This document shows, piece by piece, positions 5,257-45,531 of a stretch of 50,818 nucleotides of DNA. The stretch's first letter is position 1. Every line of letters starts with the position of its first letter. Location of the stretch: the NCBI GenBank assembly GCA_023666645.1, contig JAMPBP010000007.1:1-50818 (forward strand), read 5' to 3'. Source of the DNA: Clostridiales bacterium. Lineage in GTDB: Bacteria > Bacteroidota > Bacteroidia > Bacteroidales > Muribaculaceae. The position numbers and the translations under genes are program-made. The notes beneath the pieces are model-generated. The model ran no database searches. It saw only the letters and a program-made list of their open reading frames with translations, and had not been told where the DNA came from.

Positions 5257-7122
5257 TCAGTTGATTATTATGTCGCCAGTCGGATATTTTACTTGTCGAT
5301 TCTTAACGCTGTATGTGAATCCCATGAGCAAAGATAAAAGACCTACACGACCTATGAACATTGCAGTACATAACACTATTTTAGAGGCGACCCCAAGTTG
5401 AGGTGTAATGCCGAGTGATGACCCCACTGTAAACAATGCAGATACCGTTTCAAAAACTAATGCTTTTACCGGCAGTTCAGGCTCCAGAGCCATTATGGTT
5501 GCTGTGTATATAATAAGGGTGACTATAGCGAGGGCAAGAACGGCCTGAGCCCTGCGTATTGAGTTGACCGATATGCGACGGCCGAATGTTACGACATCGT
5601 TTCGTCCCAATATTACAGCCTTAAGATTGAGAAAGACTGCAGCTACCGTGTTGACTTTTACACCACCGGCCGTCGATTGTGATGCTCCTCCTATAATCAT
5701 AAGCACTATCATCATGAGTATAGTGAGATTATTGAACGAAGTGGACGATACCGATGAAAAGCCCGAACTTCGCGGTACAAAAGCATTGAACACCGACTGC
5801 ACCACTTGTTCATATAATGACATGCCTCTGAGTGTATTATCATGTTCCAAAATAAAGAAAAGTATTGCACTGACGAGATATAGCATCAAGGTCATGTATA
5901 GCACAATCTTAGTGTTGATATCATATATATGAACAGGGTTCTCCTCATATTGACGCTTCTTTATCCTATTCATGAGCCGCTTGAAATATTGAGACACAGC
6001 CGATTTGATATTGACCAAAATTGGGAAGCCTATTCCTCCGGCAAGTATCAACACACTGGCAATTATGTAAATGGACTGATTGGAATGTAACAATGCCTCA
6101 TTGGAAAGACCACCTTCTATATTGGAGAATCCCGCATTCATGAACGCGGTGAGCGAGTGGAACGCTGAAAAGATAATCTCATCCTCAACCGGCAATCCGA
6201 GAGTGTCGTGGACAGAAAAGAATATAACGATAGCTCCCACAACCTCTATTGTCAAGGTAAACATAAGGATATATAGCAAGGTGGGCAACAGGTTGTTCAT
6301 TGTGCGTGTATATACCATGTCACGAACCATTATCTGACTATATATTGATGCGTTGCCGCTGAAAAATAACGCGAATGAACTTGTAAAGGTCAAAACTCCA
6401 AGGCCTCCTATCTGTATCAGAATGGCAAGGATAAGAAGGCCTAAAGGAGTGAAAGTGGTAGAGATGTCGACTGATGTGAGCCCGGTAATTGATACCGCAC
6501 TTGTGGAAATGAACAAAGAGTCAATGTAACTTAGAGGTTGGCTGTTGACACATTTAGGCATCATCAGCAAAAAGGAGCCGAGAATGATAAAGAAAAAGAA
6601 ACTCGATCCGAGAATAACAGCCGGATTTGTGCGTCTTCCCAGAACCGATAGAATGCCTACACAGAATACAATCATCGAGTAAACTCCGAGAATTATGAAG
6701 TTGAAAATGTTGCTGTACAATATGCGTTCAAGAAAAGGCAACCATGGATTCTCGGGATGGGGATAGATGAGTGGAAGCAAAGTAATGAGAACAAGAGTGT
6801 CGATTATTAACCTGAAAGGTCTCTTACCTGTAAATATAGCTTTCCAATTGAATAAAAAGTTATAGAGGATATTTATGATATAAAAAACATGAATGAATCG
6901 TATTGTGCTGAACAATAAACGGTAGGAATGCTGATTATAATCAAAACCGGCCAGTATGATCAGGGCGATGAGCATTACAAATGATGCGACAAAAGTAAGG
7001 ATATCCATACCTGTCGTTATCACTCTTATAACGGGAGACCAGCGCGTTATGAAACGGTTGAATCCACGTGAAAGTGAATCCAACCGTTTTGTAACTTTTT
7101 TCAGTACCGGGCGGGGGGTCAT
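5257..7122 (-). CDS. trkH: TrkH/KtrB family K+ transporter membrane subunit, with a long N-terminal extension
   Basis: It is a polytopic membrane protein with repeated pore-loop motifs (SAVSITGL, IQIGGLGV, GGASQSTAGGVKVNT, FTVGSSLGITP). At 621 aa it is about 130 aa longer than typical TrkH proteins. Confidence 0.8.
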   Translation of the reverse strand: MTPRPVLKKVTKRLDSLSRGFNRFITRWSPVIRVITTGMDILTFVASFVMLIALIILAGFDYNQHSYRLLFSTIRFIHVFYIINILYNFLFNWKAIFTGKRPFRLIIDTLVLITLLPLIYPHPENPWLPFLERILYSNIFNFIILGVYSMIVFCVGILSVLGRRTNPAVILGSSFFFFIILGSFLLMMPKCVNSQPLSYIDSLFISTSAVSITGLTSVDISTTFTPLGLLILAILIQIGGLGVLTFTSSFALFFSGNASIYSQIMVRDMVYTRTMNNLLPTLLYILMFTLTIEVVGAIVIFFSVHDTLGLPVEDEIIFSAFHSLTAFMNAGFSNIEGGLSNEALLHSNQSIYIIASVLILAGGIGFPILVNIKSAVSQYFKRLMNRIKKRQYEENPVHIYDINTKIVLYMTLMLYLVSAILFFILEHDNTLRGMSLYEQVVQSVFNAFVPRSSGFSSVSSTSFNNLTILMMIVLMIIGGASQSTAGGVKVNTVAAVFLNLKAVILGRNDVVTFGRRISVNSIRRAQAVLALAIVTLIIYTATIMALEPELPVKALVFETVSALFTVGSSLGITPQLGVASKIVLCTAMFIGRVGLLSLLMGFTYSVKNRQVKYPTGDIIIN

Positions 7123-12309: not shown

Positions 12310-13463
12310 TGACACAAAACAACATACCTACACCGTTCTATATCGTATACGAAGACCGACTTCGTAATAATCTGCAACTTATCAATCGAGTGGAGAAAGA
12401 AGCCGGAGTAAAAATCATAATGGCTTTCAAGGCCAACGCTCTTTGGAAAACTTTCGACATTGTAAGGGAATATAACCGTGACTGTACAGCGAGCTCTCTA
12501 AATGAATTGCAACTGGGTAAGGAAGAACTGGGTGGAAATGTGCACTCCTATTGTCCGGCATATACTGATGAGACAATATATCAATATTTGGACGGAAGTT
12601 CTCATATAACCTTCAATTCCGTAAGTCAATACCAAAGATTCAAAGATATAGTTGAACAATATAATTCATGCAACAGTCATTCCAAGCATGTGTCACCCGG
12701 TTTGAGGGTCAATCCTCAGTGTTCAGTCATAGAGACTGATATTTACAACCCGGCGTTGCCTGGCAGCCGATTTGGTGTAACAGCCTCACAGCTTGATGGA
12801 AACTTGCCTGCAGGAATTGAAGGGCTCCACTTTCACCAGCTTTGTGAATCATCGTCCCACGACCTTGAAAAAGTGCTCAACGCCTTTGAATCTCAATTCG
12901 GCAGATACCTGCCTATGGTAAAATGGGTGAATATGGGAGGGGGACACCTCATGACCCGAGAAGGATATGATGTCGACCACTTGATAAGAATCTTGAAGGA
13001 CTTCAAGAGCCGTTATCCATGGCTCCACATAATACTTGAACCGGGAAGTGCTTTTACGTGGCGCACAGGTGATCTCATTACAAAAGTAGTCGATGTGGTC
13101 GAAAACCAGGGAGTTAAGACTGCTATTATCGACGCTTCGTTTGCTTGTCACATGCCCGACACGCTTGAAATGCCTTATAAACCAGCCATTTCTGAAAGTA
13201 TCGACACTGATAAAGCCAAATTTATTTATCGCTTAGGTGGCAATTCATGTCTCAGTGGAGATTATATGGGCGACTGGGGATTCAATGAAAAATTGGAAAT
13301 CGGTGACCGTCTCACCCTCCAGGATATGAATCACTATACGACTGTGAAGACGACCATGTTCAATGGTCTGCAACACCCGGCGTTGGTTCTATGTAAACAT
13401 GATGGAGAGTGCATATATCTCAGACAGTTCACATATGAGGATTACAAGCATCGCATGGACTAA
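12309..13463 (+). CDS. nspC: Carboxynorspermidine decarboxylase (PLP-dependent, fold III decarboxylase family)
   Basis: The N-terminus PTPFYIVYEDRLRNN and the 384-aa length fit NspC. Its start codon overlaps the helicase stop. Confidence 0.7.
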   Translation: MTQNNIPTPFYIVYEDRLRNNLQLINRVEKEAGVKIIMAFKANALWKTFDIVREYNRDCTASSLNELQLGKEELGGNVHSYCPAYTDETIYQYLDGSSHITFNSVSQYQRFKDIVEQYNSCNSHSKHVSPGLRVNPQCSVIETDIYNPALPGSRFGVTASQLDGNLPAGIEGLHFHQLCESSSHDLEKVLNAFESQFGRYLPMVKWVNMGGGHLMTREGYDVDHLIRILKDFKSRYPWLHIILEPGSAFTWRTGDLITKVVDVVENQGVKTAIIDASFACHMPDTLEMPYKPAISESIDTDKAKFIYRLGGNSCLSGDYMGDWGFNEKLEIGDRLTLQDMNHYTTVKTTMFNGLQHPALVLCKHDGECIYLRQFTYEDYKHRMD

Positions 13464-13487
13464 TATTAACTATAAAACATCAATTCT

Positions 13488-13856
13488 ATGAATTATTTCC
13501 CTCAGGAAAAATTTAGAGCATCATGGGGCTCGCTCATCAATCTGTCAACAGGCAATCTCGTAATTGATGACGATACGATAACATTACAACCTAATATAGC
13601 TCAGACTGTTGTAAGTGGCGGAATGTCCCGTAAAGCCTATAAGCCTCAGATATTCAATATAGCCGATGTGTGTGGTTATTCCAGCGTATTTGCAGCATGG
13701 ATGGCAATACATTTGACCGATGGCTCCAAGATAAAAGTCTCTATAGCGATATCAAAAAAAGAGAAACAAAAACTTGTCGATGCTATAGAACTTAGACGCA
13801 CGAATTATTTTCAGCGCCAAGGATTGCCTGTACCACCCCTCACGCATTCACTTTAA
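13488..13856 (+). CDS. Hypothetical protein
   Basis: A 122-aa ORF in an ordered gene string with no recognisable motif. Confidence 0.4.
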   Translation: MNYFPQEKFRASWGSLINLSTGNLVIDDDTITLQPNIAQTVVSGGMSRKAYKPQIFNIADVCGYSSVFAAWMAIHLTDGSKIKVSIAISKKEKQKLVDAIELRRTNYFQRQGLPVPPLTHSL

Positions 13857-13887
13857 ATCATAGTACCAACTTTAAATCCCAAACAAT

Positions 13888-15132
13888 ATGGCACGTATCA
13901 AACCATTCCGCGGTGTTAGACCGCCCAAAGAATTCGTCACTCAAGTAGCGTCACGCCCATATGATGTGCTTAACTCCGAGGAAGCACGTAATGAAGCCGG
14001 TGACAATGCCAAGTCACTATACCATATCATCAAGCCCGAAATTGATTTCCTCCCCGGCACTGATGAACATGACCCCAAGGTCTATGACAAAGCTGTGGAA
14101 AATTTTAATAACTTCCAGAATAACGGCTGGCTGGTTCAAGACGACAAAGACCATTACTATATCTACGCCCAGACGATGGAAGGTCGCACACAGTATGGCA
14201 TCGTAATAGCTGCCGATTTCAAGGACTACATGAATGGAGCTATTAAAAAACATGAGCTTACACGCCGTGATAAAGAAGAGGACCGCATGAAGCATGTAAG
14301 GGTCAACAATGCCAATATTGAACCCGTATTCTTTGCGTTCCCCGATAATGCTGTCCTGGAGCAGATCATCAAGGAAGAGACAGCCAAAGAGCCTGAATAT
14401 GACTTTGTCGCTCCTGATGGATTCGGCCATCATTTCTGGGTAATAGATAATCCCGACACTATCGATACGATTACCAAGACATTTGCCGACATACCTTATC
14501 TATATATTGCCGATGGGCACCATCGTACTGCCGCAGCTGCCCTCGTAGGTAATGAGAAAGCTCAGGCAAATATAAACCACACCGGCGATGAAGAATACAA
14601 TTTTTTCCTTGCCGTTGCTTTCCCTGCCTCTCACCTGTGCATTATTGATTATAACCGGGTTGTTAAGGATCTCAATGGCTTGAATAAGGAAGAGTTTCTT
14701 AACCGAATCTCTGAAAATTTCGACATCACAAGCAAGGGAACCGAGGAATATCGCCCCACCGCGCTACATAATTTCTCGCTCTATATCGACGGCAACTGGT
14801 ATTCACTCACTGCCAAGCCGGGAAGATATGACGACAATGACCCTATTGGGGTGCTTGATGTAACAATATCGAGCGACTTAATTTTACGCGATATTTTGGG
14901 TATAACCGACCTACGTTCAGACAAACGCATTGACTTTGTTGGAGGTATACGTGGGCTTGGCGAACTGAAACAACGTGTCGACAGTGGAGAAATGGCCATG
15001 GCACTCGCCCTGTATCCTGTTTCAATGAAACAATTAATGGACATCGCTGATAGTGGCAACATCATGCCGCCCAAGACCACATGGTTTGAGCCTAAACTCC
15101 GCTCGGGTCTTGTAATCCACAAACTTGACTAA
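13888..15132 (+). CDS. DUF1015 family protein
   Basis: The N-terminus is MARIKPFRGVRPPKEF.... The 414-aa length and overall pattern are typical of DUF1015. Confidence 0.7.
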   Translation: MARIKPFRGVRPPKEFVTQVASRPYDVLNSEEARNEAGDNAKSLYHIIKPEIDFLPGTDEHDPKVYDKAVENFNNFQNNGWLVQDDKDHYYIYAQTMEGRTQYGIVIAADFKDYMNGAIKKHELTRRDKEEDRMKHVRVNNANIEPVFFAFPDNAVLEQIIKEETAKEPEYDFVAPDGFGHHFWVIDNPDTIDTITKTFADIPYLYIADGHHRTAAAALVGNEKAQANINHTGDEEYNFFLAVAFPASHLCIIDYNRVVKDLNGLNKEEFLNRISENFDITSKGTEEYRPTALHNFSLYIDGNWYSLTAKPGRYDDNDPIGVLDVTISSDLILRDILGITDLRSDKRIDFVGGIRGLGELKQRVDSGEMAMALALYPVSMKQLMDIADSGNIMPPKTTWFEPKLRSGLVIHKLD

Positions 15133-15159
15133 TCAATTGCTGCATACCGTAGCAAATGT

Positions 15160-15200
15160 AAAAAACGGAGATAGCTTGTTATCGCTACCTCCGTTTTTTC
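15160..15200. terminator. Bidirectional rho-independent terminator between convergent genes
   Basis: The sequence AAAAAACGGAGATAGC-ttgttatc-GCTACCTCCGTTTTTTC has an A-tract before the stem and a T-tract after it. Confidence 0.65.
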
Positions 15201-15240
15201 AGCTTTATATAAAAAATTATCTGACGAAATTATATTGCTG

Positions 15241-16221
15241 TTAATTGTTGGCTATCTCATCAAGTGAGAAAGTTGCCGACAGCTCGCGTGGTTCCTTCTT
15301 ACCTTCAAGTAAATCAAAGAAGAAATCTCTTATCGACATCATGTCAAGAGTTGCCTGACTTCCATCGGCCTTAGTCCCGAGGTCGTATGTTTTCAGCATC
15401 TGGGGGCCAAGAGAAGCGGCTGTAATCAAGAAATGATTCTGAAACTTGTCAGTATCGAGCATATCAGCTGCCAATACCTTACCGATAACGGTGAACGAGC
15501 GCAAAGACCGTTGCATGTCTTCATTGGTGAGAGTCGATCTTATTTGGTCGGTCTCAAGATTCATCGGTATACGTCCCGATTTCTCATCTTCAGGTTTTTC
15601 GCGGAACAGAGCACCAAGATCGGCCAATGACAGGTTGAACATGCGGGTATCAGGTGTTGTATGTGGAATCTCGATTGTAAATGCAGAAGGGAGGAGCAAT
15701 TGTATTGTTCCCTCAAGGTTTACACGAGCAGTATTGAATGTGCCCACAATACAGTTATTTATCGTCGCATCGGCTGAAGCAAAAACACCACCAATCACAA
15801 CACAATTCTCAAGAATTATCTCATCGGCATATATGCTGCCGGCGACATAGGCATTGCGCAGAGTCACTTGTTTGGCATTGATATCACACCCGAAAACAGG
15901 TCGACAGTTGTTCGCGCGCGACACAATAGACCCTGCTGAACCTACCGTTTTCTTCATTATCACATCACCCCTTACATCACCCGAGATATAAAATTCGTTC
16001 TTTGCAAAAACGGAACCGCCTATCTCGATGTCTCCACCTCTTATATCAATGCGTTGTCCAAAAACGGCACCTTCCACAAGTGTGTTACCCTCTAAGACTA
16101 CATTACGGTTCAACTCGGCAATTTTTTGAGGCAGTATAGCACCCCTTACAAGGTTATCTTTGAGAATCAGCTCAGTAGTATCAAGCCTGATTTCTTTTAA
16201 TTCTTTTTTATCGTTCATCAT
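15241..16221 (-). CDS. Bactofilin-like polymer-forming beta-helix protein with a C-terminal extension; last gene of the six-gene operon
   Basis: Its N-terminal 200 aa are rich in short beta-strand repeats with G/V/I/N periodicity (VLEGNTLVEGAVFGQRIDIRGGDIEIGGSVFAKNEFYISGDVRGDVIM...). The start overlaps the upstream gene by 4 bp. Confidence 0.55.
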   Translation of the reverse strand: MMNDKKELKEIRLDTTELILKDNLVRGAILPQKIAELNRNVVLEGNTLVEGAVFGQRIDIRGGDIEIGGSVFAKNEFYISGDVRGDVIMKKTVGSAGSIVSRANNCRPVFGCDINAKQVTLRNAYVAGSIYADEIILENCVVIGGVFASADATINNCIVGTFNTARVNLEGTIQLLLPSAFTIEIPHTTPDTRMFNLSLADLGALFREKPEDEKSGRIPMNLETDQIRSTLTNEDMQRSLRSFTVIGKVLAADMLDTDKFQNHFLITAASLGPQMLKTYDLGTKADGSQATLDMMSIRDFFFDLLEGKKEPRELSATFSLDEIANN

Positions 16222-17225
16222 TGTTGAATTGTTTCATTATCAGTAAATAATCGACTTGTCAGCTCGGCAACACGGCGTTCGTGACTTGTAGACGAGCTAT
16301 TCATCGCATCGGCCACATTATCATTAAAATATTCAAGTATACGTTTATCAATCCCCACCTTGCTGTCCAGCGGCATTTTGGTTGTAAGAATATTTCTATC
16401 AACCTGAGAGAGCATTGGAGAGGTGTAAACATCGCTACTTGATGTTTGATTACAGTCAATCGATTCTACAACACAATATGGCGACAGAATAGTTTTTTCC
16501 TCACCACCGTTACGCAAACATTGGGTAAGTAGATTGTCCGTGTCATATTGAATGTTCAGGAAATGCCTGCCATCATCAATAGTTTCAGCAGCCAGATGTT
16601 TCAATCGTGAAACTGATAGGGTAGAATGCAGGTGAGCTTGCTCTGTGGCTGTAACGGTCGCAGTCCCGATTGCTTGCACTGGCGTCGAGCCTACGGAATC
16701 GGCCAGTCTTTGGAATGAGAATACCGGCTGGTCGATGGCATATATACGGTTCTCAAGCTCATGGTTAAGGTCGTCGAAAATCTTTATGTAACGGGACGAC
16801 AGACGGTTGTAATCTTCCTTCATCTGGCGCTGTTTGTCATGACATCGGTCGGCAAAACTTTTGAGTTGCAACAGCAAGGCATCGATACGTGTCGACAATT
16901 CAGTTATCTGCTGAGAGATATCCGAGCGTACAGTTTTAAAGAATCCGGAAATTATTGTTTGTCCGACTTTTCTGGAATTATCGGCTATGGATTTAACCTG
17001 AGCAGCCTCAGTGGCGACCACCGATCCCGTCAATAGGTCGACACCATGCTCCAGTGTATCTACCGAGTGGTCAAACGGGTCTGTGTCGACAGTTACATTG
17101 AAATGAACCGTCTCAGTCACTGATCCCGAATAGCTACGTGTACCTCCCGATTGAGATGCCGGATAACTCACAGAACCTGAGTAATGGACCGTGATTGATC
17201 TGGAAAAATGTCGTGTATAACTCAT
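16218..17225 (-). CDS. Hypothetical helical or coiled-coil protein, paralog of 17250-18173
   Basis: It aligns with the neighbouring paralog, for example MKEDYNRLSSRYIKIFDDLNHELENRI against MERDYQMICARYGKLFTAINRNLRQRV. It also carries a Ser/Tyr-rich N-terminal extension. Confidence 0.65.
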   Translation of the reverse strand: MSYTRHFSRSITVHYSGSVSYPASQSGGTRSYSGSVTETVHFNVTVDTDPFDHSVDTLEHGVDLLTGSVVATEAAQVKSIADNSRKVGQTIISGFFKTVRSDISQQITELSTRIDALLLQLKSFADRCHDKQRQMKEDYNRLSSRYIKIFDDLNHELENRIYAIDQPVFSFQRLADSVGSTPVQAIGTATVTATEQAHLHSTLSVSRLKHLAAETIDDGRHFLNIQYDTDNLLTQCLRNGGEEKTILSPYCVVESIDCNQTSSSDVYTSPMLSQVDRNILTTKMPLDSKVGIDKRILEYFNDNVADAMNSSSTSHERRVAELTSRLFTDNETIQQ

Positions 17226-17249
17226 TGTAAAAAGTTTAAAGAAGGTACA

Positions 17250-18173
17250 TTACAATGTAAGGAAGTTATTGGCTTCAAAAAGCTTCACTATAGTATCACG
17301 GCGACGCTGGTCAAGATCAGACGAGGCAACAAGACGGTGAAACTGATTGGACAGTTGTGGGTCTATAGTTCCATTGGCTTGCCACGATAATTCCTGCTCG
17401 CTATTGGCTACGCTCAATCTATTTTCTATCAAATTTCTTGAAGTTGCAGTCATATCGATCTTCGATACCGTTACCTGAAAATGCTTGTTGTCAGAACGGT
17501 CATAGTTGGATTCCATCATTATGACCGGTACATTAAGCTGAGATGTTTCTGTTGATGACCTACGGCTCAAAAGAACACGGTCGATCATGTATTGAAGTCG
17601 ATTGTAGCCTGAGATAAATCTCTCGATAGCTTCAATGGCATGCGAGGCACGATATTTTAGATTGGAGGTGAGCAGATGCTGCGAGGTTTTGACCGACTCG
17701 GTTTGTCCAAGTGGAATCGTTGCAGTCATGTGGCTGGCACGGTTGGAAACTTTATCGGCTTCGGTCGTGGCGAGATCAATGATGGGACGGTCGAGTTCGG
17801 TGACCCGTTGACGCAGATTGCGATTTATGGCAGTGAATAGTTTGCCATATCTTGCACAGATCATCTGGTAATCCCGTTCCATGCGCCGGCGTATGTTGGA
17901 CAACTGTTTATGTTGTTGATTCAAGCGCATAAGCTGAGCATCGACACGACTCTGCATAGCCGCCATTTTCTGAGAAATCTGGGAATGAATCATCGAATAG
18001 AATCCTTGATTCACCTTCTTACACACATGATCAGCACCATCTTGTTCAGCTTTTATGACTGCAGCCTTCATGGCAACGACAGCGGCTGTGGTGCCATTAA
18101 CATGGGAGTTGACAGCATGAACCGACTGGGCGAGTTCGGTAGTGTCGACAACACAATCAAATGAATGAGACAT
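17250..18173 (-). CDS. Hypothetical helical or coiled-coil protein, paralog of 16218-17225
   Basis: Similarity to its paralog, at about 25-30% identity by eye, runs across the whole length. Confidence 0.65.
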   Translation of the reverse strand: MSHSFDCVVDTTELAQSVHAVNSHVNGTTAAVVAMKAAVIKAEQDGADHVCKKVNQGFYSMIHSQISQKMAAMQSRVDAQLMRLNQQHKQLSNIRRRMERDYQMICARYGKLFTAINRNLRQRVTELDRPIIDLATTEADKVSNRASHMTATIPLGQTESVKTSQHLLTSNLKYRASHAIEAIERFISGYNRLQYMIDRVLLSRRSSTETSQLNVPVIMMESNYDRSDNKHFQVTVSKIDMTATSRNLIENRLSVANSEQELSWQANGTIDPQLSNQFHRLVASSDLDQRRRDTIVKLFEANNFLTL

Positions 18174-18196
18174 ATAAATAAGGTGTATTAAAAGGA

Positions 18197-20215
18197 TTAC
18201 TGTTCGTTATCGGATTTGTCACACGAAATATCGGGTAAATCGGTCTCTGATTGTGGGATTGGAGGTAGATCAGGAAGAACGGTTGACTGTGGCATTTCAG
18301 GAATATCGGAGATATTTGAAATCTCTTGCTCCATGATTTCAGGCATAGATTCAGTAGATTTTGCAACAGAAGGTTCCGCTACCTTAACATTGGCATTGAG
18401 AGAGCCAAGGGCTTCCTTCACAATAGCTGGAAGGTTCAAACCAAAGTGATCAAATGTTATATCACTGACTTGAGGTTCGGGCATTAGCTCTGAATCCTTG
18501 GCCAATTTGGGGTTAATCGAGGCAAGCGGCTTTCTTCGTTCATCAAGGGTATGTACCTCAGCACCTGCGACAGCTACAGCATTGGAATAGCCATCACGAA
18601 GTTTTGCATCAAAGTATTCGACATGACCAAATTTACTGGCTTTCAAATCAATATCTTCTTTTAGACGTTCTATGTATTCCTCAAACTCGGTTTGCACTTT
18701 TTGGAATTCCTGTCCCTGAAGCTCAAAGGCAGCCAAAGTATCGGCAGTATTGTCAACAACTTCCACAACAACCGAGTCAAGGTTACCATCTGAGAGTTTC
18801 ATCTGATTTTCTGTACGTTTCAAAGCCATAAGATTATTGTAGGCGCTGACATACTCGGTCAAGGTCTGTTGCATCAAATTTATAAGATCGGCCGATTCAG
18901 CTCTGTTGGACCTATAGAACGCATCAGTATCCTGATGCCACTTGTTGAGATAAGATATCTTCTGGTCTCTGATGGCATTATATATCTTCAGACGTTCGAT
19001 ACGATTCTCCTGCATGAGGTTCTGTACCATTGGCGCTATTATCTCCTCATACATTTGGTGGACACCGAATGGTTGAACTGTTTGTGATCCATCTTCAGCA
19101 ATCCAAGTACCGGTCAACGGATTGTATCTTACACGAGAAGATTGTCTCAGAGTAAATGGCTCATAGCCCTGAATCGAATCGGAATAATCAAATTTTTCAT
19201 TTCGTATCCGGTCTATTTCGTCGGCTTCCAGCAAGGGTGAATAATGATTGTAGGGCGCCTTAAGTATTTGATATAGCAGGCGGTTGGAGTCAAGCACTAT
19301 TTTATCGACCGAAGCTACCTTCATGCGGGTTACTGTCTGTACAGAATTGCCTATCGCATTCATAAGCATTATCAGTACCTCTTCAAACTGTGCTGTTTCA
19401 TTGGAAAGTGAATTCTTAAGATCGTTTATTTCCTGGAATTTTTTAATTCCGGTTTGGTAAGCATTATTGTTGAACACTTCAACGACTGTAGCCTTATCGG
19501 GCAATTCACTTGTCGCATATGTATCGAGTTGCGGTAAATATAGGGAATTATCAGTGACTACCGGCAGAGTCACCGATGTCGTATCGAGATCCTCCATACA
19601 GAATGTCATTGTCTTGAGAGCGCGCTCCATGGAACCGAGATAGTCGTTCTCCTTTATCTCCTGAATGGACAGAGAATAATCATCAGTATTGACAGTCTCG
19701 GCCTCATTGGAAGTCTCCACGATAGGTGCTTCCTTCGAAAGGGCATCGAGAGCATGTATCGTATCAACCAATAGGTCATTGCGGCGCGAAACGCTCATGG
19801 ATATCTTCTGTTCGGGAACAGCTCCGGTATAATCGACGATAAAACTCTTGTCTTGATATTTAATCTGTTCAGCAACAGGGACAAACGCTACACCCATACG
19901 GGTCACTTTATAGTCGCGGAATATTTCCTTATAACGTTGACGCTGTACGGCAATTTTTTCTTCTTTTCCCTCAATTTCAGTCGTTATGCGTTTCTTGAGG
20001 AAGTAATAGGGAAGATAGAACAATAGCATGTACCACCACTTGCTTGACAATTCATTGCGCAAATCAGCAATACCCTGCTCGAGGTCTCTGATATTGCTTT
20101 CAATAAGCTCTTCTTCTTCAACTATACGCTCAGCTGCCTGTCGATAATAGTTAAAGAGGATTTTTGCCTGATCATGCCATATATTGGCCGAATCAGGGAA
20201 AATTTTTCCATCCAT
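18197..20215 (-). CDS. Large coiled-coil protein (672 aa) with an N-proximal aromatic hydrophobic segment and an acidic Pro-rich C-terminal tail
   Basis: It has heptad-rich regions (EEEELIESNIRDLEQGIADLRNEL), the segment WWYMLLFYLPYYFL, and the tail PEIMEQEISNISDIPEMPQSTVLPDLPPIPQSETDLPD. No P-loop is present. Confidence 0.65.
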   Translation of the reverse strand: MDGKIFPDSANIWHDQAKILFNYYRQAAERIVEEEELIESNIRDLEQGIADLRNELSSKWWYMLLFYLPYYFLKKRITTEIEGKEEKIAVQRQRYKEIFRDYKVTRMGVAFVPVAEQIKYQDKSFIVDYTGAVPEQKISMSVSRRNDLLVDTIHALDALSKEAPIVETSNEAETVNTDDYSLSIQEIKENDYLGSMERALKTMTFCMEDLDTTSVTLPVVTDNSLYLPQLDTYATSELPDKATVVEVFNNNAYQTGIKKFQEINDLKNSLSNETAQFEEVLIMLMNAIGNSVQTVTRMKVASVDKIVLDSNRLLYQILKAPYNHYSPLLEADEIDRIRNEKFDYSDSIQGYEPFTLRQSSRVRYNPLTGTWIAEDGSQTVQPFGVHQMYEEIIAPMVQNLMQENRIERLKIYNAIRDQKISYLNKWHQDTDAFYRSNRAESADLINLMQQTLTEYVSAYNNLMALKRTENQMKLSDGNLDSVVVEVVDNTADTLAAFELQGQEFQKVQTEFEEYIERLKEDIDLKASKFGHVEYFDAKLRDGYSNAVAVAGAEVHTLDERRKPLASINPKLAKDSELMPEPQVSDITFDHFGLNLPAIVKEALGSLNANVKVAEPSVAKSTESMPEIMEQEISNISDIPEMPQSTVLPDLPPIPQSETDLPDISCDKSDNEQ

Positions 20216-20342
20216 AATTGTTAATAATGTTTAGTCCTAATACCGAATTGCAGCTACAAGGTCTGATTCAAAATACAATGCACCTTATGCTAACATTAGG
20301 CAAAGGGTGGTTAAAAATGAAATGAATAATATTAGATTGTAT

Positions 20343-21044
20343 TTAATACCGCTTTCTTGCTGTATATGTCAATTCAAGAGCATTCATAAGTTTTTCTATA
20401 CGCTCTTTGTTCATATCATAATCATAGAATGCATGAGTCATATCTCGGCAGTAGTCGACTATTCTACAGTCAAGCTCGACTGCTTCGGGAATTGATGATG
20501 GTGATATATAGCGGGAGTCTGCTTCAATACTCTTCAAGCGATTGATAACATTCAGAGGGACGCTCTTTATCTGAGCTTCCATAATGACATCACTCAAAGC
20601 CCGTTTAATTGATTGCTTGCCTGCCTTTTGTACATTTTCTTTCTCATAGACGGCTCGGGTCTTTTCGTTGACCCCAAGCACGGTAAAAGCAAGAATCAAT
20701 AGAAGAAATATAAATAGACATTGTGTAAACAGCTGCCAATTAAACTCTATGCCAGCACTTATGGCTATAAATATGAACCCGATGGAAAGCAATGAATAAA
20801 TAAATGATCCTTGCCATCTGATGCCGAGCGCCGCCACCTGTTTCTGTGATTTGTCATCAAGATTGATGGGTTCCCGGAACAATGTAGCCACCCATAACCA
20901 ATAGTTTAACGATACTACGGTTAGGTCGAGCCACATCACCGCTGGATTAACAAAAAGAGTAACAGGCAACAATAAAACAAATATAGCCACTAACAGCAAC
21001 TGCCCAAATATTGCGATCGCAATGCCTATTGGTTTGATATTCAT
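20343..21044 (-). CDS. Integral membrane protein (about 4 TM helices plus a roughly 90-aa cytoplasmic C-terminal domain)
   Basis: There are hydrophobic stretches at about residues 5-28, 35-57, 82-106 and 110-135. It lies 20 bp downstream of the SPFH gene. Confidence 0.6.
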   Translation of the reverse strand: MNIKPIGIAIAIFGQLLLVAIFVLLLPVTLFVNPAVMWLDLTVVSLNYWLWVATLFREPINLDDKSQKQVAALGIRWQGSFIYSLLSIGFIFIAISAGIEFNWQLFTQCLFIFLLLILAFTVLGVNEKTRAVYEKENVQKAGKQSIKRALSDVIMEAQIKSVPLNVINRLKSIEADSRYISPSSIPEAVELDCRIVDYCRDMTHAFYDYDMNKERIEKLMNALELTYTARKRY

Positions 21045-21064
21045 GGTATTTAGATATAATTTAG

Positions 21065-22354
21065 TTACGTACGTCTATTACCACATTTTGGACAGAAGGC
21101 CGCAGTGGGAGGAAGAGGTGAGCCGCAACGGCTACATGTATTGCTCGAAATGATTACAGGCTGTCCACAACCTGGGCAAAAAGTAGAGCCTGCCGGTAAA
21201 GTCATGTTGCAGTGGGGACACTTATTGGCTGCTCCTGCAAGTTGTGTGCCGCAATTCACACATCGATGGGCCTCCTCTGGATTGTCACTGCCACAATTAG
21301 GGCAAGGGTGGTATTTATTGCCACAGTTAGGGCAAAATGCCGAGGTCGACGGGAATTTCTTTGAACAGGATGAACAATATACCATGCGTGCCGGCTGAGC
21401 CGATGGAGTGGCACCTTGCTGGAAATTCTGCGGAGCCGACTGGCCACCACCAAAAGTCGGTTGACTAAACTGCGGATTCATCATGCTACCATTGGCTGCT
21501 CCACCCGTCATATTGTTCATCATGGATATAGCAAGAAGACCACCCAGCAAATTTCCGTTTCCACCTGACCCTACGCCTCCTACCTGATTGATAGCTTGCG
21601 AGGCTGTACCAAACATCTGTTCCTGTTGCCAGGTATGTCCTGTAATTGACATTGAACTCTGCGTAGCTATGGCTTCTTTAACCTTGAGCCCCTCTGGAGT
21701 TGAAGTATCGATATCGATATCTGAAACGTAGAATTTGGGCACATCGAGGCCTATATTATTGCAAAAGTCATTAAGTTGAGCTTTAAGTGATTGGGACAAC
21801 GGGTCAAGAAACGCAGATATCTGTTTAAAACCAACACTATTCTGCATCATAAATTGAACCACTGCCGATTTTACCTTTGTTGTAAATTCTCCCTTGAATT
21901 GCTCTGTAAGATCACGCTGGGTAAATATATTCTTTGTACCCACCATCTTTATTACAAACTTCTCGGGGTCAGTGACCTTGACTCCATATTGTCCATTGAG
22001 TTCCAAAGGCAGCTGCGTTTGGTAATCCGAGTCATGGACCGACAATTTTCCTACATGCCAAGGTATATTGAATGTTTCGATGATATTCACAAACCATATT
22101 TGGGCGAAAAATGGATTCTTCCCTCCAAATGGAATTCCGAAAAAAGACCGCAATATAGGCAGATTTTCTGTATCGAGAGTATGCTTTCCAGGCCCAAATT
22201 TAGCAAGCAGCTGACCTTTTGAGAACATCAGGGCAACTTGCGACTCGTTAACTATTAACTGGGTATAAGTTGACAGATTATCATGCGGGAACTTATAAGC
22301 ATACACTACCTCAGGACCTTGCGGATTCCAAGAGACACAATCAATAATAGCCAT
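21065..22354 (-). CDS. SPFH/Band-7-like domain protein (COG4260 / YdjI-like Band_7_1 type) fused to a Gly/Gln/Asn-rich linker and four C-terminal zinc ribbons
   Basis: The N-terminus CVSWNPQGPEVVYAYKFP...LIVNESQVALMFSKGQLLAKFGPGKHTLDTENLPIL matches the YdjI-type pattern. The C-terminus has eight CxxC pairs (CSSC/CPNC, CPNC/CVNC, CPHC/CPGC, CSRC/CPKC). Confidence 0.8.
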   Translation of the reverse strand: MAIIDCVSWNPQGPEVVYAYKFPHDNLSTYTQLIVNESQVALMFSKGQLLAKFGPGKHTLDTENLPILRSFFGIPFGGKNPFFAQIWFVNIIETFNIPWHVGKLSVHDSDYQTQLPLELNGQYGVKVTDPEKFVIKMVGTKNIFTQRDLTEQFKGEFTTKVKSAVVQFMMQNSVGFKQISAFLDPLSQSLKAQLNDFCNNIGLDVPKFYVSDIDIDTSTPEGLKVKEAIATQSSMSITGHTWQQEQMFGTASQAINQVGGVGSGGNGNLLGGLLAISMMNNMTGGAANGSMMNPQFSQPTFGGGQSAPQNFQQGATPSAQPARMVYCSSCSKKFPSTSAFCPNCGNKYHPCPNCGSDNPEEAHRCVNCGTQLAGAANKCPHCNMTLPAGSTFCPGCGQPVIISSNTCSRCGSPLPPTAAFCPKCGNRRT

Positions 22355-22397: not shown

Positions 22398-22431
22398 CAA
22401 ATATAACAATATTTTCTACAAATAAAGCAAA
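22398..22431 (-). promoter_or_regulatory. Candidate Bacteroidetes promoter for the six-gene operon
   Basis: The minus strand carries TTTG (22431-22428), a 22-nt spacer, then TAtaTTTG (22405-22398). This gives a 5' UTR of about 40 nt to the ATG at 22354. The spacer is slightly longer than the 19-21 nt consensus. Confidence 0.3.
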
Positions 22432-22659
22432 ATGGCATTAAAAATATTGTATTGACGATAATTTTAATACTTTTACTATTAAATCCTTCAAAACACGTAT
22501 CTCACGTTGAGTTGCCATATTATTTTTTGCACGAATCAGACAAGGGACAATCACAACAACCTCTTGACTTACTCTTTCGACACTTTATAAAGCTGTATAT
22601 AGTTCCCATAACTGCAATCAGTAATATTGCGATCACAATTATCCACTGAATTGCTATAC

Positions 22660-23196
22660 TCATAACAACTCGTAAATGAGTGCTTTCAATCGATCATACT
22701 CACTTTCAAAATTGGGTGTGAGTATACCTTTGCCTTTCACGGCATCTATTTCATCACCACTCCAGAATCGTGCATCGTCAATTTCATCTCTATTATATAC
22801 AGGTGAGAAATCATCAGAATCAACAATCATACAATAAGCATGTACCAATTCATGTTCACGGTCACTTCTGAAATCATAGGTGACGAGATGAAACTTTTCG
22901 TTTATCTCAATGCCGAGTTCCTCTCGGGTTTCCCTTGCCAGGGCATTCTCAACCGACTCGTTATAATCCACGTGCCCTCCCACAGCAGTGTCCCATCGTC
23001 CAGGTTGTATATCCTTGTTCATTGATCTTTTCTGCAGAAATATACGTCCGTCACAGTCGACTATGTGCAGGTGTACAACCGGGTGGAGCAACATACTGCC
23101 CGAATGGCATTCCCCACGTGTTGCCTTTCCAATAACCGTTCCATTAAGATTGACAATAGGGAATAGCTCACTGTTATATTGCTTCATTGTATCCAA
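22660..23196 (-). CDS. NUDIX hydrolase
   Basis: The Nudix box is GGHVDYNESVENALARETREELGIEI. Length is 178 aa. Confidence 0.85.
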   Translation of the reverse strand: MDTMKQYNSELFPIVNLNGTVIGKATRGECHSGSMLLHPVVHLHIVDCDGRIFLQKRSMNKDIQPGRWDTAVGGHVDYNESVENALARETREELGIEINEKFHLVTYDFRSDREHELVHAYCMIVDSDDFSPVYNRDEIDDARFWSGDEIDAVKGKGILTPNFESEYDRLKALIYELL

Positions 23197-45204: not shown

Positions 45205-45531
45205 AAATACAAGGACGACATACGAGAGACAAGAGAGTCAATCAGTGGTGAAAGTCGTCAATAGATTTTAAATTGATAAAAATCTACCACATCAAAGTTG
45301 ATTGGGAAACTCTTCAAATCAATATGAAATGCCGAGACAAGCTTAGTCGTCTGATGGCGGGCCCCAATTTATCGATTTTATCGTTAAATGCTTTTATGCC
45401 AGGCGGATTACAAAGGATGGCGAGCACTCAAATCCTGTCTATTCGGAGTTTCATCGCATCCTTTGATGTGGTTACCTATACGATAGGGGTATATCAAGCT
45501 AACAGTTTGATATACCCCTATTATTTTTTTT
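45205..45531 (+). ncRNA. Candidate small RNA or short transcript of about 330 nt, bounded by the promoter at 45165-45196 and the terminator at 45484-45531
   Basis: It lies in a 617-bp gap with no convincing ORF. The only ORF (86 aa, TTG start) runs through the terminator hairpin. Confidence 0.3.
45484..45531 (+). terminator. Strong rho-independent terminator, plus strand only
   Basis: TAGGGGTATATCAA-gctaacagt-TTGATATACCCCTA is a 14-bp perfect stem, followed by TTATTTTTTTT. Confidence 0.65.

Follow-up and report, generated by a model that had tools for sequence, protein, structure and literature searches.

Proteins of the SPFH superfamily are universal, and their functions in bacteria are poorly understood. 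To our knowledge, the only YdjI-type member that has been studied works with PspA. Here we describe a cassette of six collinear genes (g1 to g6, numbered 5′ to 3′ along the minus strand) at positions 15241-22354 of a 50,818-nucleotide stretch of DNA (contig JAMPBP010000007.1 of GenBank assembly GCA_023666645.1), the whole of which we refer to as the window. The cassette begins with an SPFH protein of the YdjI type, recurs with the same gene order in loci labelled as several phyla, has moved horizontally between distant hosts, is under purifying selection, and matches no known kind of system, though it is built around a known domain.

In Bacillus subtilis, YdjI (SamI) consists of an SPFH domain, then a region of low complexity and, last, a zinc finger (PMC8581546; PMC11237479), and its localisation requires the membrane proteins YdjG and YdjH (PMC8581546; bioRxiv 10.64898/2026.02.06.704340; PMC11237479). 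The cassette resembles the pspA-ydjGHI (samGHI) operon in that a YdjI-type SPFH protein depends on co-encoded membrane proteins for its recruitment, which for the cassette is a proposal, and in that no enzymes are encoded. It differs in having no PspA/IM30, no YdjG (two zinc ribbons, an NTF2-like domain and a transmembrane (TM) segment) and no YdjH (a TPM protein), and in having g2, g3, g6 and the g4/g5 pair in their place, which make up four families that match nothing described above threshold. It is found mainly in Bacteroidota and in loci labelled Spirochaetota, Ignavibacteriota and Gemmatimonadota rather than in Firmicutes, and the six-gene unit is mobile as a cassette. Neither g2 nor g3 has a Pfam match to TPM_phosphatase or to an NTF2-like domain, and both belong to families unrelated to YdjG and YdjH; the cassette has no YdjG-like or YdjH-like partner. 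Because equivalents of PspA, YdjG and YdjH were tested for and not found, we do not regard the cassette as a member of the PspA-YdjGHI group.

A second point of comparison is provided by the SPFH cage operons (HflK/C-FtsH, SPFH-NfeD pairs such as QmcA-YbbJ, and flotillin-YqiJ/YuaF), which likewise join an SPFH protein to a small multi-TM partner and share with the cassette a presumed role in organising membrane patches. Unlike these, g1 lacks a TM anchor and falls within the Band_7_1 branch, the cassette has neither an NfeD nor a protease partner, and it adds four conserved structural proteins.

The SPFH Protein g1

The first gene, g1 (21065-22354, minus strand), encodes a soluble YdjI/SamI-type SPFH protein of 429 aa, and no other of the six has so secure a domain assignment. 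Residues 20-236 match the Pfam family Band_7_1 (PF13421) with E=7.3e-32 and 111.1 bits against a cutoff of 24 bits, covering profile positions 4-210 of 211, which makes g1 a member of the SPFH superfamily. The C-terminus holds four zinc ribbons (four Zn_Ribbon_1 stretches; Pfam DZR, E=8.9e-25), joined to the SPFH domain by a low-complexity linker rich in G, N, Q and M, and hydropathy reveals no TM segment. Precomputed annotations place Band_7_1 on g1 in nine of nine divergent loci as well (see below), where the protein is 40-42% identical, compared with 51-74% among 80 Bacteroidota-labelled loci. A phmmer search with g1 alone found no relative in the PDB. A sequence-only reading of the window had recognised the YdjI-type Band_7_1 domain and the four zinc ribbons, and the Pfam match bears this out; the same reading had treated the protein as a fusion of YdjI with YdjG. 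Since a soluble Band_7_1 domain, a stretch of low complexity and a C-terminal zinc ribbon are the architecture of YdjI itself, which is reported already to end in a zinc finger, g1 is a YdjI-type protein and not such a fusion.

Conservation and Layout of the Cassette

A profile and pattern scan for g4 across 185,579 species genomes gave matches in 209, of which the best 80 were fetched as loci (retrieved cassette loci carry L-numbers). All 80 are collinear with the window: tblastn detects the six genes in 59, another eight have a multi-TM open reading frame (ORF) of 234-245 aa in the g2 slot, and the remaining 13 are cut by contig ends. Among the cultured organisms that have the cassette are Capnocytophaga sputigena NCTC11653, Labilibaculum filiforme 59.16B and Muribaculaceae Isolate-013. 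Nine divergent loci were traced through g3 homologues with 34-47% identity, in metagenome-assembled genomes (MAGs) labelled Treponema, Gemmatimonadetes and Melioribacteraceae and on unlabelled contigs, with GC contents of 42-63%. Eight of these nine match the window in all six genes, their order and their sizes, and the ninth (L081) ends at a contig edge within its fourth gene. The g3 and g6 proteins are at least 54% identical among Bacteroidota-labelled loci and 34-49% in the divergent ones. The flanks are unrelated to one another, and clustering of 543 flanking ORFs brought out no seventh gene that is conserved. The co-occurrence of the six genes outside this genome, whose absence had been named beforehand as one outcome that would refute the reading, is thus present wherever it was looked for, and also outside Bacteroidota.

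The layout in the window is that of one conserved, self-contained unit, as had been claimed. From g1 to g5 the genes are separated by 20, 127, 23 and 24 bp, and the g5 stop and g6 start share a 4-bp ATGA overlap; the single wide gap had been read correctly, whereas the 4 bp given earlier as the smallest gap is this overlap. Across the family, median gaps are 11-24 bp with frequent 4-bp overlaps and protein lengths barely vary, and such tight spacing fits co-translation of one complex. The wide gap in the window is the g2-g3 spacer (20216-20342, minus strand), whose 127 bp make it an outlier against a family median of 24 bp in 62 loci. Neither an ORF nor a clear promoter motif was seen in it, and an internal promoter or regulatory element there is possible.

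Selection and Horizontal Transfer

All six genes have ratios of nonsynonymous to synonymous substitution rates (dN/dS) of 0.03-0.25, the highest being that of g2, and are under purifying selection. At the nucleotide level, some cassettes are 87-97% identical over 7.4-7.9 kb in hosts from different orders and classes, with the similarity stopping 0-370 bp outside g1 and g6 and the flanks unrelated. Near-identical cassettes of this kind are shared by a Chitinophagales MAG, a Labilibaculum filiforme isolate and a Dysgonomonadaceae MAG, by a Prolixibacteraceae MAG and Bacteroidales bacterium CF, and by a Sphingobacteriales MAG and a Lutibacter MAG. Because the identity is this high across orders and classes, the transfer must have been recent. 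In a pair of Flavobacteriales MAGs, the cassettes (L064, 3541-12044; L069, 1683-10196) are 97.8% identical in genomes that around them are only 84-87% identical, a contrast which indicates that recombination at a shared locus has recently replaced the cassette.

The g3 protein has no match in phage or plasmid collections by tblastn or in an IMG/VR scan, and the cassettes as a whole share no terminal repeats, direct or inverted. The 148 neighbours within two genes on either side are assorted housekeeping genes, with about eight matches to PADLOC defence models and two integrases, these being raw counts; the few defence-like neighbours match the PDC-S01, MkoA, restriction–modification (RM) and mad2 models. 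Some genomes hold more than one copy: the MAG JAKPTX01 has two (L026 and L054) with proteins 88-94% identical, and JAFVBC01 has two (L065 and L067) that are 100% identical and could be an assembly or binning duplicate.

The Putative Membrane-Linked Proteins g2 and g3

The g2 product (20343-21044, minus strand, 233 aa) is predicted to be an inner-membrane protein with about four TM segments. Hydropathy and the family alignment give three strong hydrophobic 19-mers and one weaker segment, followed by a helical tail of about 110 aa, in agreement with the earlier description of a 4-TM protein with a cytoplasmic tail; the loops on the periplasmic side would be very short and the tail would lie in the cytoplasm. 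It is the fastest-evolving component, with 22-38% identity across loci and a dN/dS of 0.11-0.25, and profile searches found no relatives in Pfam, PADLOC or the PDB.

The g3 product (18197-20215, minus strand, 672 aa) is an acidic orphan protein, with 112 D+E against 69 K+R. Its N-terminal helix and a core of about 500 aa are conserved, and its tail, acidic and rich in Pro, is variable. Residues 60-74 form an aromatic segment of 15 residues that resembles a membrane-insertion sequence, and divergent homologues have one or two true TM helices in its place. The aromatic segment and the acidic tail had both been pointed out from the sequence; the accompanying label of a giant coiled-coil sits poorly with the AlphaFold2 (AF2) model, which at a mean predicted local distance difference test (pLDDT) score of 52 is of low confidence and mixes long helices with alpha/beta segments. 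Profile searches, which for Pfam included 42 homologues, found no Pfam or PDB relative of the core. Since a profile search of 1.84 billion proteins yielded only 368 cluster representatives, mostly fragments, g3 is a narrow orphan family. LemA was considered for the N-terminus and rejected, as the match (E=0.01, 16.1 bits against a 26.2-bit cutoff) occurs in the window protein only and LemA is not among the families found in the 42 homologues.

The ends of g3 vary among its homologues, with zinc ribbons fused at the N-terminus in some and at the C-terminus in others. In homologues such as that at L085 9846-12425 (P0398/P0257) and P0467, P0478, P0480, P0258 and P0466, the last element of the acidic tail can be a ribosomal L7/L12 C-terminal domain (E=1.3e-17), zinc ribbons or a zinc ribbon of the LysW type (PF21344), and one of these proteins, P0466, is named ‘DksA’ by its Joint Genome Institute (JGI) source. 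Because zinc ribbons occur at either end and the L7/L12 domain follows the acidic tail, both termini of g3 are probably cytoplasmic. These fusions echo the tethered zinc ribbons of g1 and suggest that the tails serve in capturing a partner.

The Paralogues g4 and g5 and the Bactofilin-Like Protein g6

The g4 (17250-18173, minus strand, 307 aa) and g5 (16218-17225, minus strand, 335 aa) products are diverged paralogues, as had been proposed: BLASTP aligns the two at 27% identity (E=1e-25), and hhalign aligns the two families over their full length with a probability of 100% (E=7.5e-62). The AF2 model of g4, a long-helix protein (pLDDT 75, predicted template modelling (pTM) score 0.27), has a helix of 138 residues (12-149), a second helix (155-201) and a small C-terminal alpha/beta domain, and a structure search gave no specific fold match. 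Compared with g4, g5 has an additional conserved N-terminal extension of about 38 aa rich in Ser, Gly and Tyr. Profile searches with g4, g5 and the two combined found no Pfam family or PDB relative.

The sequence-only reading had raised the possibility that this pair is PspA-, ESCRT-III- or TelA-like, and the profile comparisons do not support it. PF04012 and Snf7 are absent at E<=1 in the six proteins and at E<=0.1 in 30 g4/g5 homologues, the g4 family aligns with E. coli PspA at an hhalign probability of 0.2%, and TelA gives no signal in the 30 family members. Scattered matches of g4/g5 to FliD_C, NheC, ‘tellurite resistance’ and tape-measure families were set aside as inconsistent coiled-coil noise.

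The last gene, g6 (15241-16221, minus strand, 326 aa), encodes a protein with a bactofilin-like N-terminal region and a conserved C-terminal domain. The N-terminal region (residues ~40-165) is predicted to have beta-helix repeats of the bactofilin kind, and its best PDB profile match is BacA (2n3d, E=0.038). The bactofilin profile PF04519 gives E=0.024 and 15.3 bits, below the 27.9-bit gathering cutoff. PF04519 also appears at E<=0.1 in 21 of 26 g6 homologues (best 1.1e-4), all below the gathering score. It thus seems that g6 is consistently but weakly bactofilin-like; the earlier assignment stands as regards the recurrent similarity but not as regards a match above threshold. Compared with the bactofilins BacA, CcmA and BacM, g6 shares the repeat pattern of its N-terminal half, whose fold is predicted, and differs in a conserved C-terminal domain of about 150 aa (~175-326) that bactofilins lack and in which D201, D253, N262-H263, Q274 and Y279 are invariant in a cross-phylum alignment.

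Searches for Known Families

All six proteins were scanned with Pfam, NCBIfam, PHROGs and PADLOC-DB v2.0.0 (5027 models). Five of the six have no above-threshold family, and g2 to g5 have no relatives in Pfam, NCBIfam or the PDB. The NCBIfam and PHROGs scans gave nothing meaningful, none of the six has a significant PADLOC match (only the chance-level E=0.024 and 0.0055), and the literature searched does not describe the gene set. No catalytic domain was found in any of the six by Pfam, NCBIfam or PADLOC. In both respects, the lack of a recognisable enzyme and the lack of a described counterpart, the searches agree with what had been read from the sequence.

Signals and Flanks in the Window

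Upstream of g1 lies a non-coding stretch of 165 bp containing a promoter-like region (22398-22431, minus strand), read from the sequence, with the Bacteroidota -7 box TATATTTG at 22398-22405 and TTTG motifs 13 and 22 nt upstream of it. In 42 of 66 loci the pattern TAnnTTTG lies no more than 200 bp upstream of g1, where shuffled sequences would lead one to expect 7.8; a sigma-70 promoter scan is uninformative for Bacteroidota. Between g6 and the convergent DUF1015 gene is an intrinsic-terminator-like hairpin (15160-15199, no strand assigned), which is GC-rich (CGGAGGTAGC-8 nt-GCTATCTCCG) and has an A-run and a T-run beside it. This hairpin was likewise read from the sequence and was not listed by a consensus scan. 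The six genes thus appear to form one operon with its own Bacteroidota housekeeping-type promoter, and the hairpin probably marks its end.

The flanks are ordinary chromosomal genes: NUDIX, type IA topoisomerase, MazG and DsbD genes on one side, and DUF1015, an Orn/DAP decarboxylase-like gene and UvrD on the other. A 47-aa ORF (22520-22663, minus strand) codes for a single TM helix with a Cys-rich tail (CRKSKSRGCCDCPLSDSC); because its ATG overlaps the NUDIX stop (ATGA), we assign it to the upstream operon and not to the cassette. At 45285-45479 (plus strand) is a Bacteroidales-1 (6S-like) RNA, with 107.8 bits against a gathering score of 60 bits. This RNA and the Muribaculaceae relatives of the encoded proteins place the contig in Bacteroidales despite its NCBI label, ‘Clostridiales bacterium’.

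Flanking Elements in One Sub-Clade

In one sub-clade (L025, L026, L028, L046, L059, L072, L073 and L078), conserved non-coding elements flank the cassette, spanning about 300 bp on its 5′ side and about 330 bp on its 3′ side (in L046, at 5354-5860 and 12970-13299). They are conserved far above the synonymous level, with, for example, 85% and 71% identity against 39% at third codon positions, and extra copies bound neighbouring units. The 3′ element opens with an imperfect palindrome of about 70 nt, a conserved hairpin with a 20-bp stem. The elements have no Rfam match, RNAalifold detects only weak covariation apart from one long hairpin, and the window cassette has no copy of them. They might be cassette boundaries, regulatory sites or recombination sites.

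In L078 a second unit (13320-20278) directly follows the cassette and has copies of these 5′ and 3′ elements as its boundaries. Its products are a 1650-aa restriction endonuclease (REase)/helicase-like protein (PADLOC REase_MTase_IIG, E=1e-100) together with KwaA (E=1e-12) and KwaB (E=5.5e-16), and the two units look like an array of cassettes.

A Proposed Sub-Membrane Scaffold and Its Rivals

At a probability of roughly 0.4, we favour a model in which an SPFH-nucleated scaffold sits at the membrane on its cytoplasmic side and protects or monitors the envelope. The six products would form one stoichiometric, non-enzymatic assembly at the inner membrane, in which g1 oligomerises and is recruited by the membrane-anchored g2, through its four TM segments, and g3, through a TM hairpin or aromatic insertion, much as YdjI is recruited by YdjG and YdjH in B. 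subtilis. The g4 and g5 proteins would pair into long coiled-coil rods and g6 would supply a bactofilin-like beta-helical polymer, so that all together build a sub-membrane scaffold, from which flexible tails (the Gly/Asn/Gln linker and zinc ribbons of g1, the acidic tail of g3) may capture a ligand or partner. As a horizontally mobile accessory module, the assembly would stabilise, repair or monitor the cytoplasmic membrane under envelope insult, and the cassette would be a PspA-independent functional analogue of PspA-YdjGHI (SamGHI).

We favour this model because g1 is YdjI-type and has no TM segment, g2 is multi-TM, g3 homologues have TM hairpins, g4 has a helix of 138 residues and g6 is bactofilin-like; because the genes are tightly spaced, strictly syntenic, under purifying selection and apparently served by a housekeeping-type promoter of their own; and because the flanks are mostly housekeeping genes and no copy was found in the phage, plasmid or IMG/VR sequences. 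Several observations weigh on the other side. The only link to a membrane-stress system is g1, as PspA, TPM and a YdjG-like partner were not found; a patchy distribution with cross-class transfer characterises defence systems no less than stress modules; one locus (L078) adjoins a Kiwi/REase unit and shares its boundary repeats; and the invariant Asp, Asn and His residues of g6 leave room for an unrecognised enzyme.

A serious alternative, to which we give a somewhat lower probability, is that the cassette is a membrane-based anti-phage system, acting by abortive infection or exclusion, in which the assembly senses infection and the TM component g2 or g3 depolarises or blocks the membrane. Such a system would resemble defence systems without classical enzymes, such as Kiwi (KwaAB) and the ZorAB core of Zorya, which are also mobile, patchily distributed multi-gene cassettes that combine a multi-TM protein with soluble partners. 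The rarity of the cassette (209 species matches among 185,579 species genomes) is what would be expected of defence, as are the recent transfers between orders and classes (87-97% nucleotide identity over ~7.5 kb between unrelated flanks), the 97.8% identity of the L064 and L069 cassettes in genomes that are 84-87% identical, the fast evolution of g2 and the hypervariable tail of g3. In L078 the cassette stands directly beside a Kiwi unit, which consists of the REase/helicase-like gene, KwaA and KwaB and is bounded by copies of the same flanking repeats, and a few neighbours elsewhere match the PDC-S01, MkoA, RM and mad2 models. The earlier judgement that phage defence is the less likely role was too confident, given a patchy and horizontally transferred cassette that in one locus has a Kiwi-containing unit at its side. 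Against defence, however, the adjacency to Kiwi is a single case, none of the six proteins has a significant match among the 5027 PADLOC models, and the cassette has no MotAB-like or DUF4868 component. Its association with defence islands appears weak, with only ~5% of the neighbours within two genes defence-like and 2 of 148 integrases; most flanks, those of the window included, are housekeeping genes, and the cassette was not found on phages, plasmids or IMG/VR contigs. The conservation of g3 and g6 (at least 54%, and 34-49% in the divergent loci) is also atypical for proteins caught in an arms race.

A further possibility, which we consider improbable, gives the cassette a part in the cytoskeleton or morphogenesis, or in the formation of an intracellular compartment or vesicle; bactofilin-like and coiled-coil filaments would act with an SPFH cage to shape or partition the inner membrane, in a role unrelated to stress or defence. 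The purely structural content (a bactofilin-like beta-helix, long helices and SPFH), the strong purifying selection and the housekeeping-type promoter would all suit such a module. Vertical inheritance and a stable genomic setting are the norm for core morphogenetic systems, whereas this cassette is rare and mobile with variable flanks and its hosts span unrelated morphologies and habitats, and it is because of this rarity and mobility that a cytoskeletal or compartment role is less likely. As for the notion that the six genes are no functional unit at all but a chance adjacency or annotation artefact, the comparative data already refute it: order, orientation, sizes and spacing are identical in 89 loci whose labels span several phyla and whose flanks are unrelated, and dN/dS is well below 1 for every gene, so that its probability is negligible.

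What the Cassette Would Mean

Whatever its role, the cassette adds new protein families, four in all (g2, g3, the g4/g5 pair and, within g6, the C-terminal domain), and it offers a clear case of cassette-like transfer across classes with no associated recombinase. More tentatively, at odds somewhat short of even, it could represent a new non-enzymatic class of membrane surveillance, repair or immunity system: a mobile six-protein machine of the inner membrane whose components would be an oligomeric SPFH protein, a polymer of the bactofilin type, a coiled-coil heteromer and two membrane anchors, that comprises four new families, with copies labelled as at least four phyla, and that occurs in arrays with boundary elements in one sub-clade. 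It is a defined unit of six genes (~7.1 kb), with what is probably its own promoter, that could be moved into a tractable host. If the assembly is part of defence, an enzyme-free, cytoskeleton-like mechanism would be added to bacterial immunity. In the cassette, an SPFH protein of the YdjI type is hard-wired to partners that are completely different and far more numerous than those in B. subtilis, and this in phyla with a scarcely studied envelope biology. If the repair scaffold is correct, the cassette would provide PspA-independent envelope homeostasis in Bacteroidota of the gut, the mouth, the rumen and the environment.

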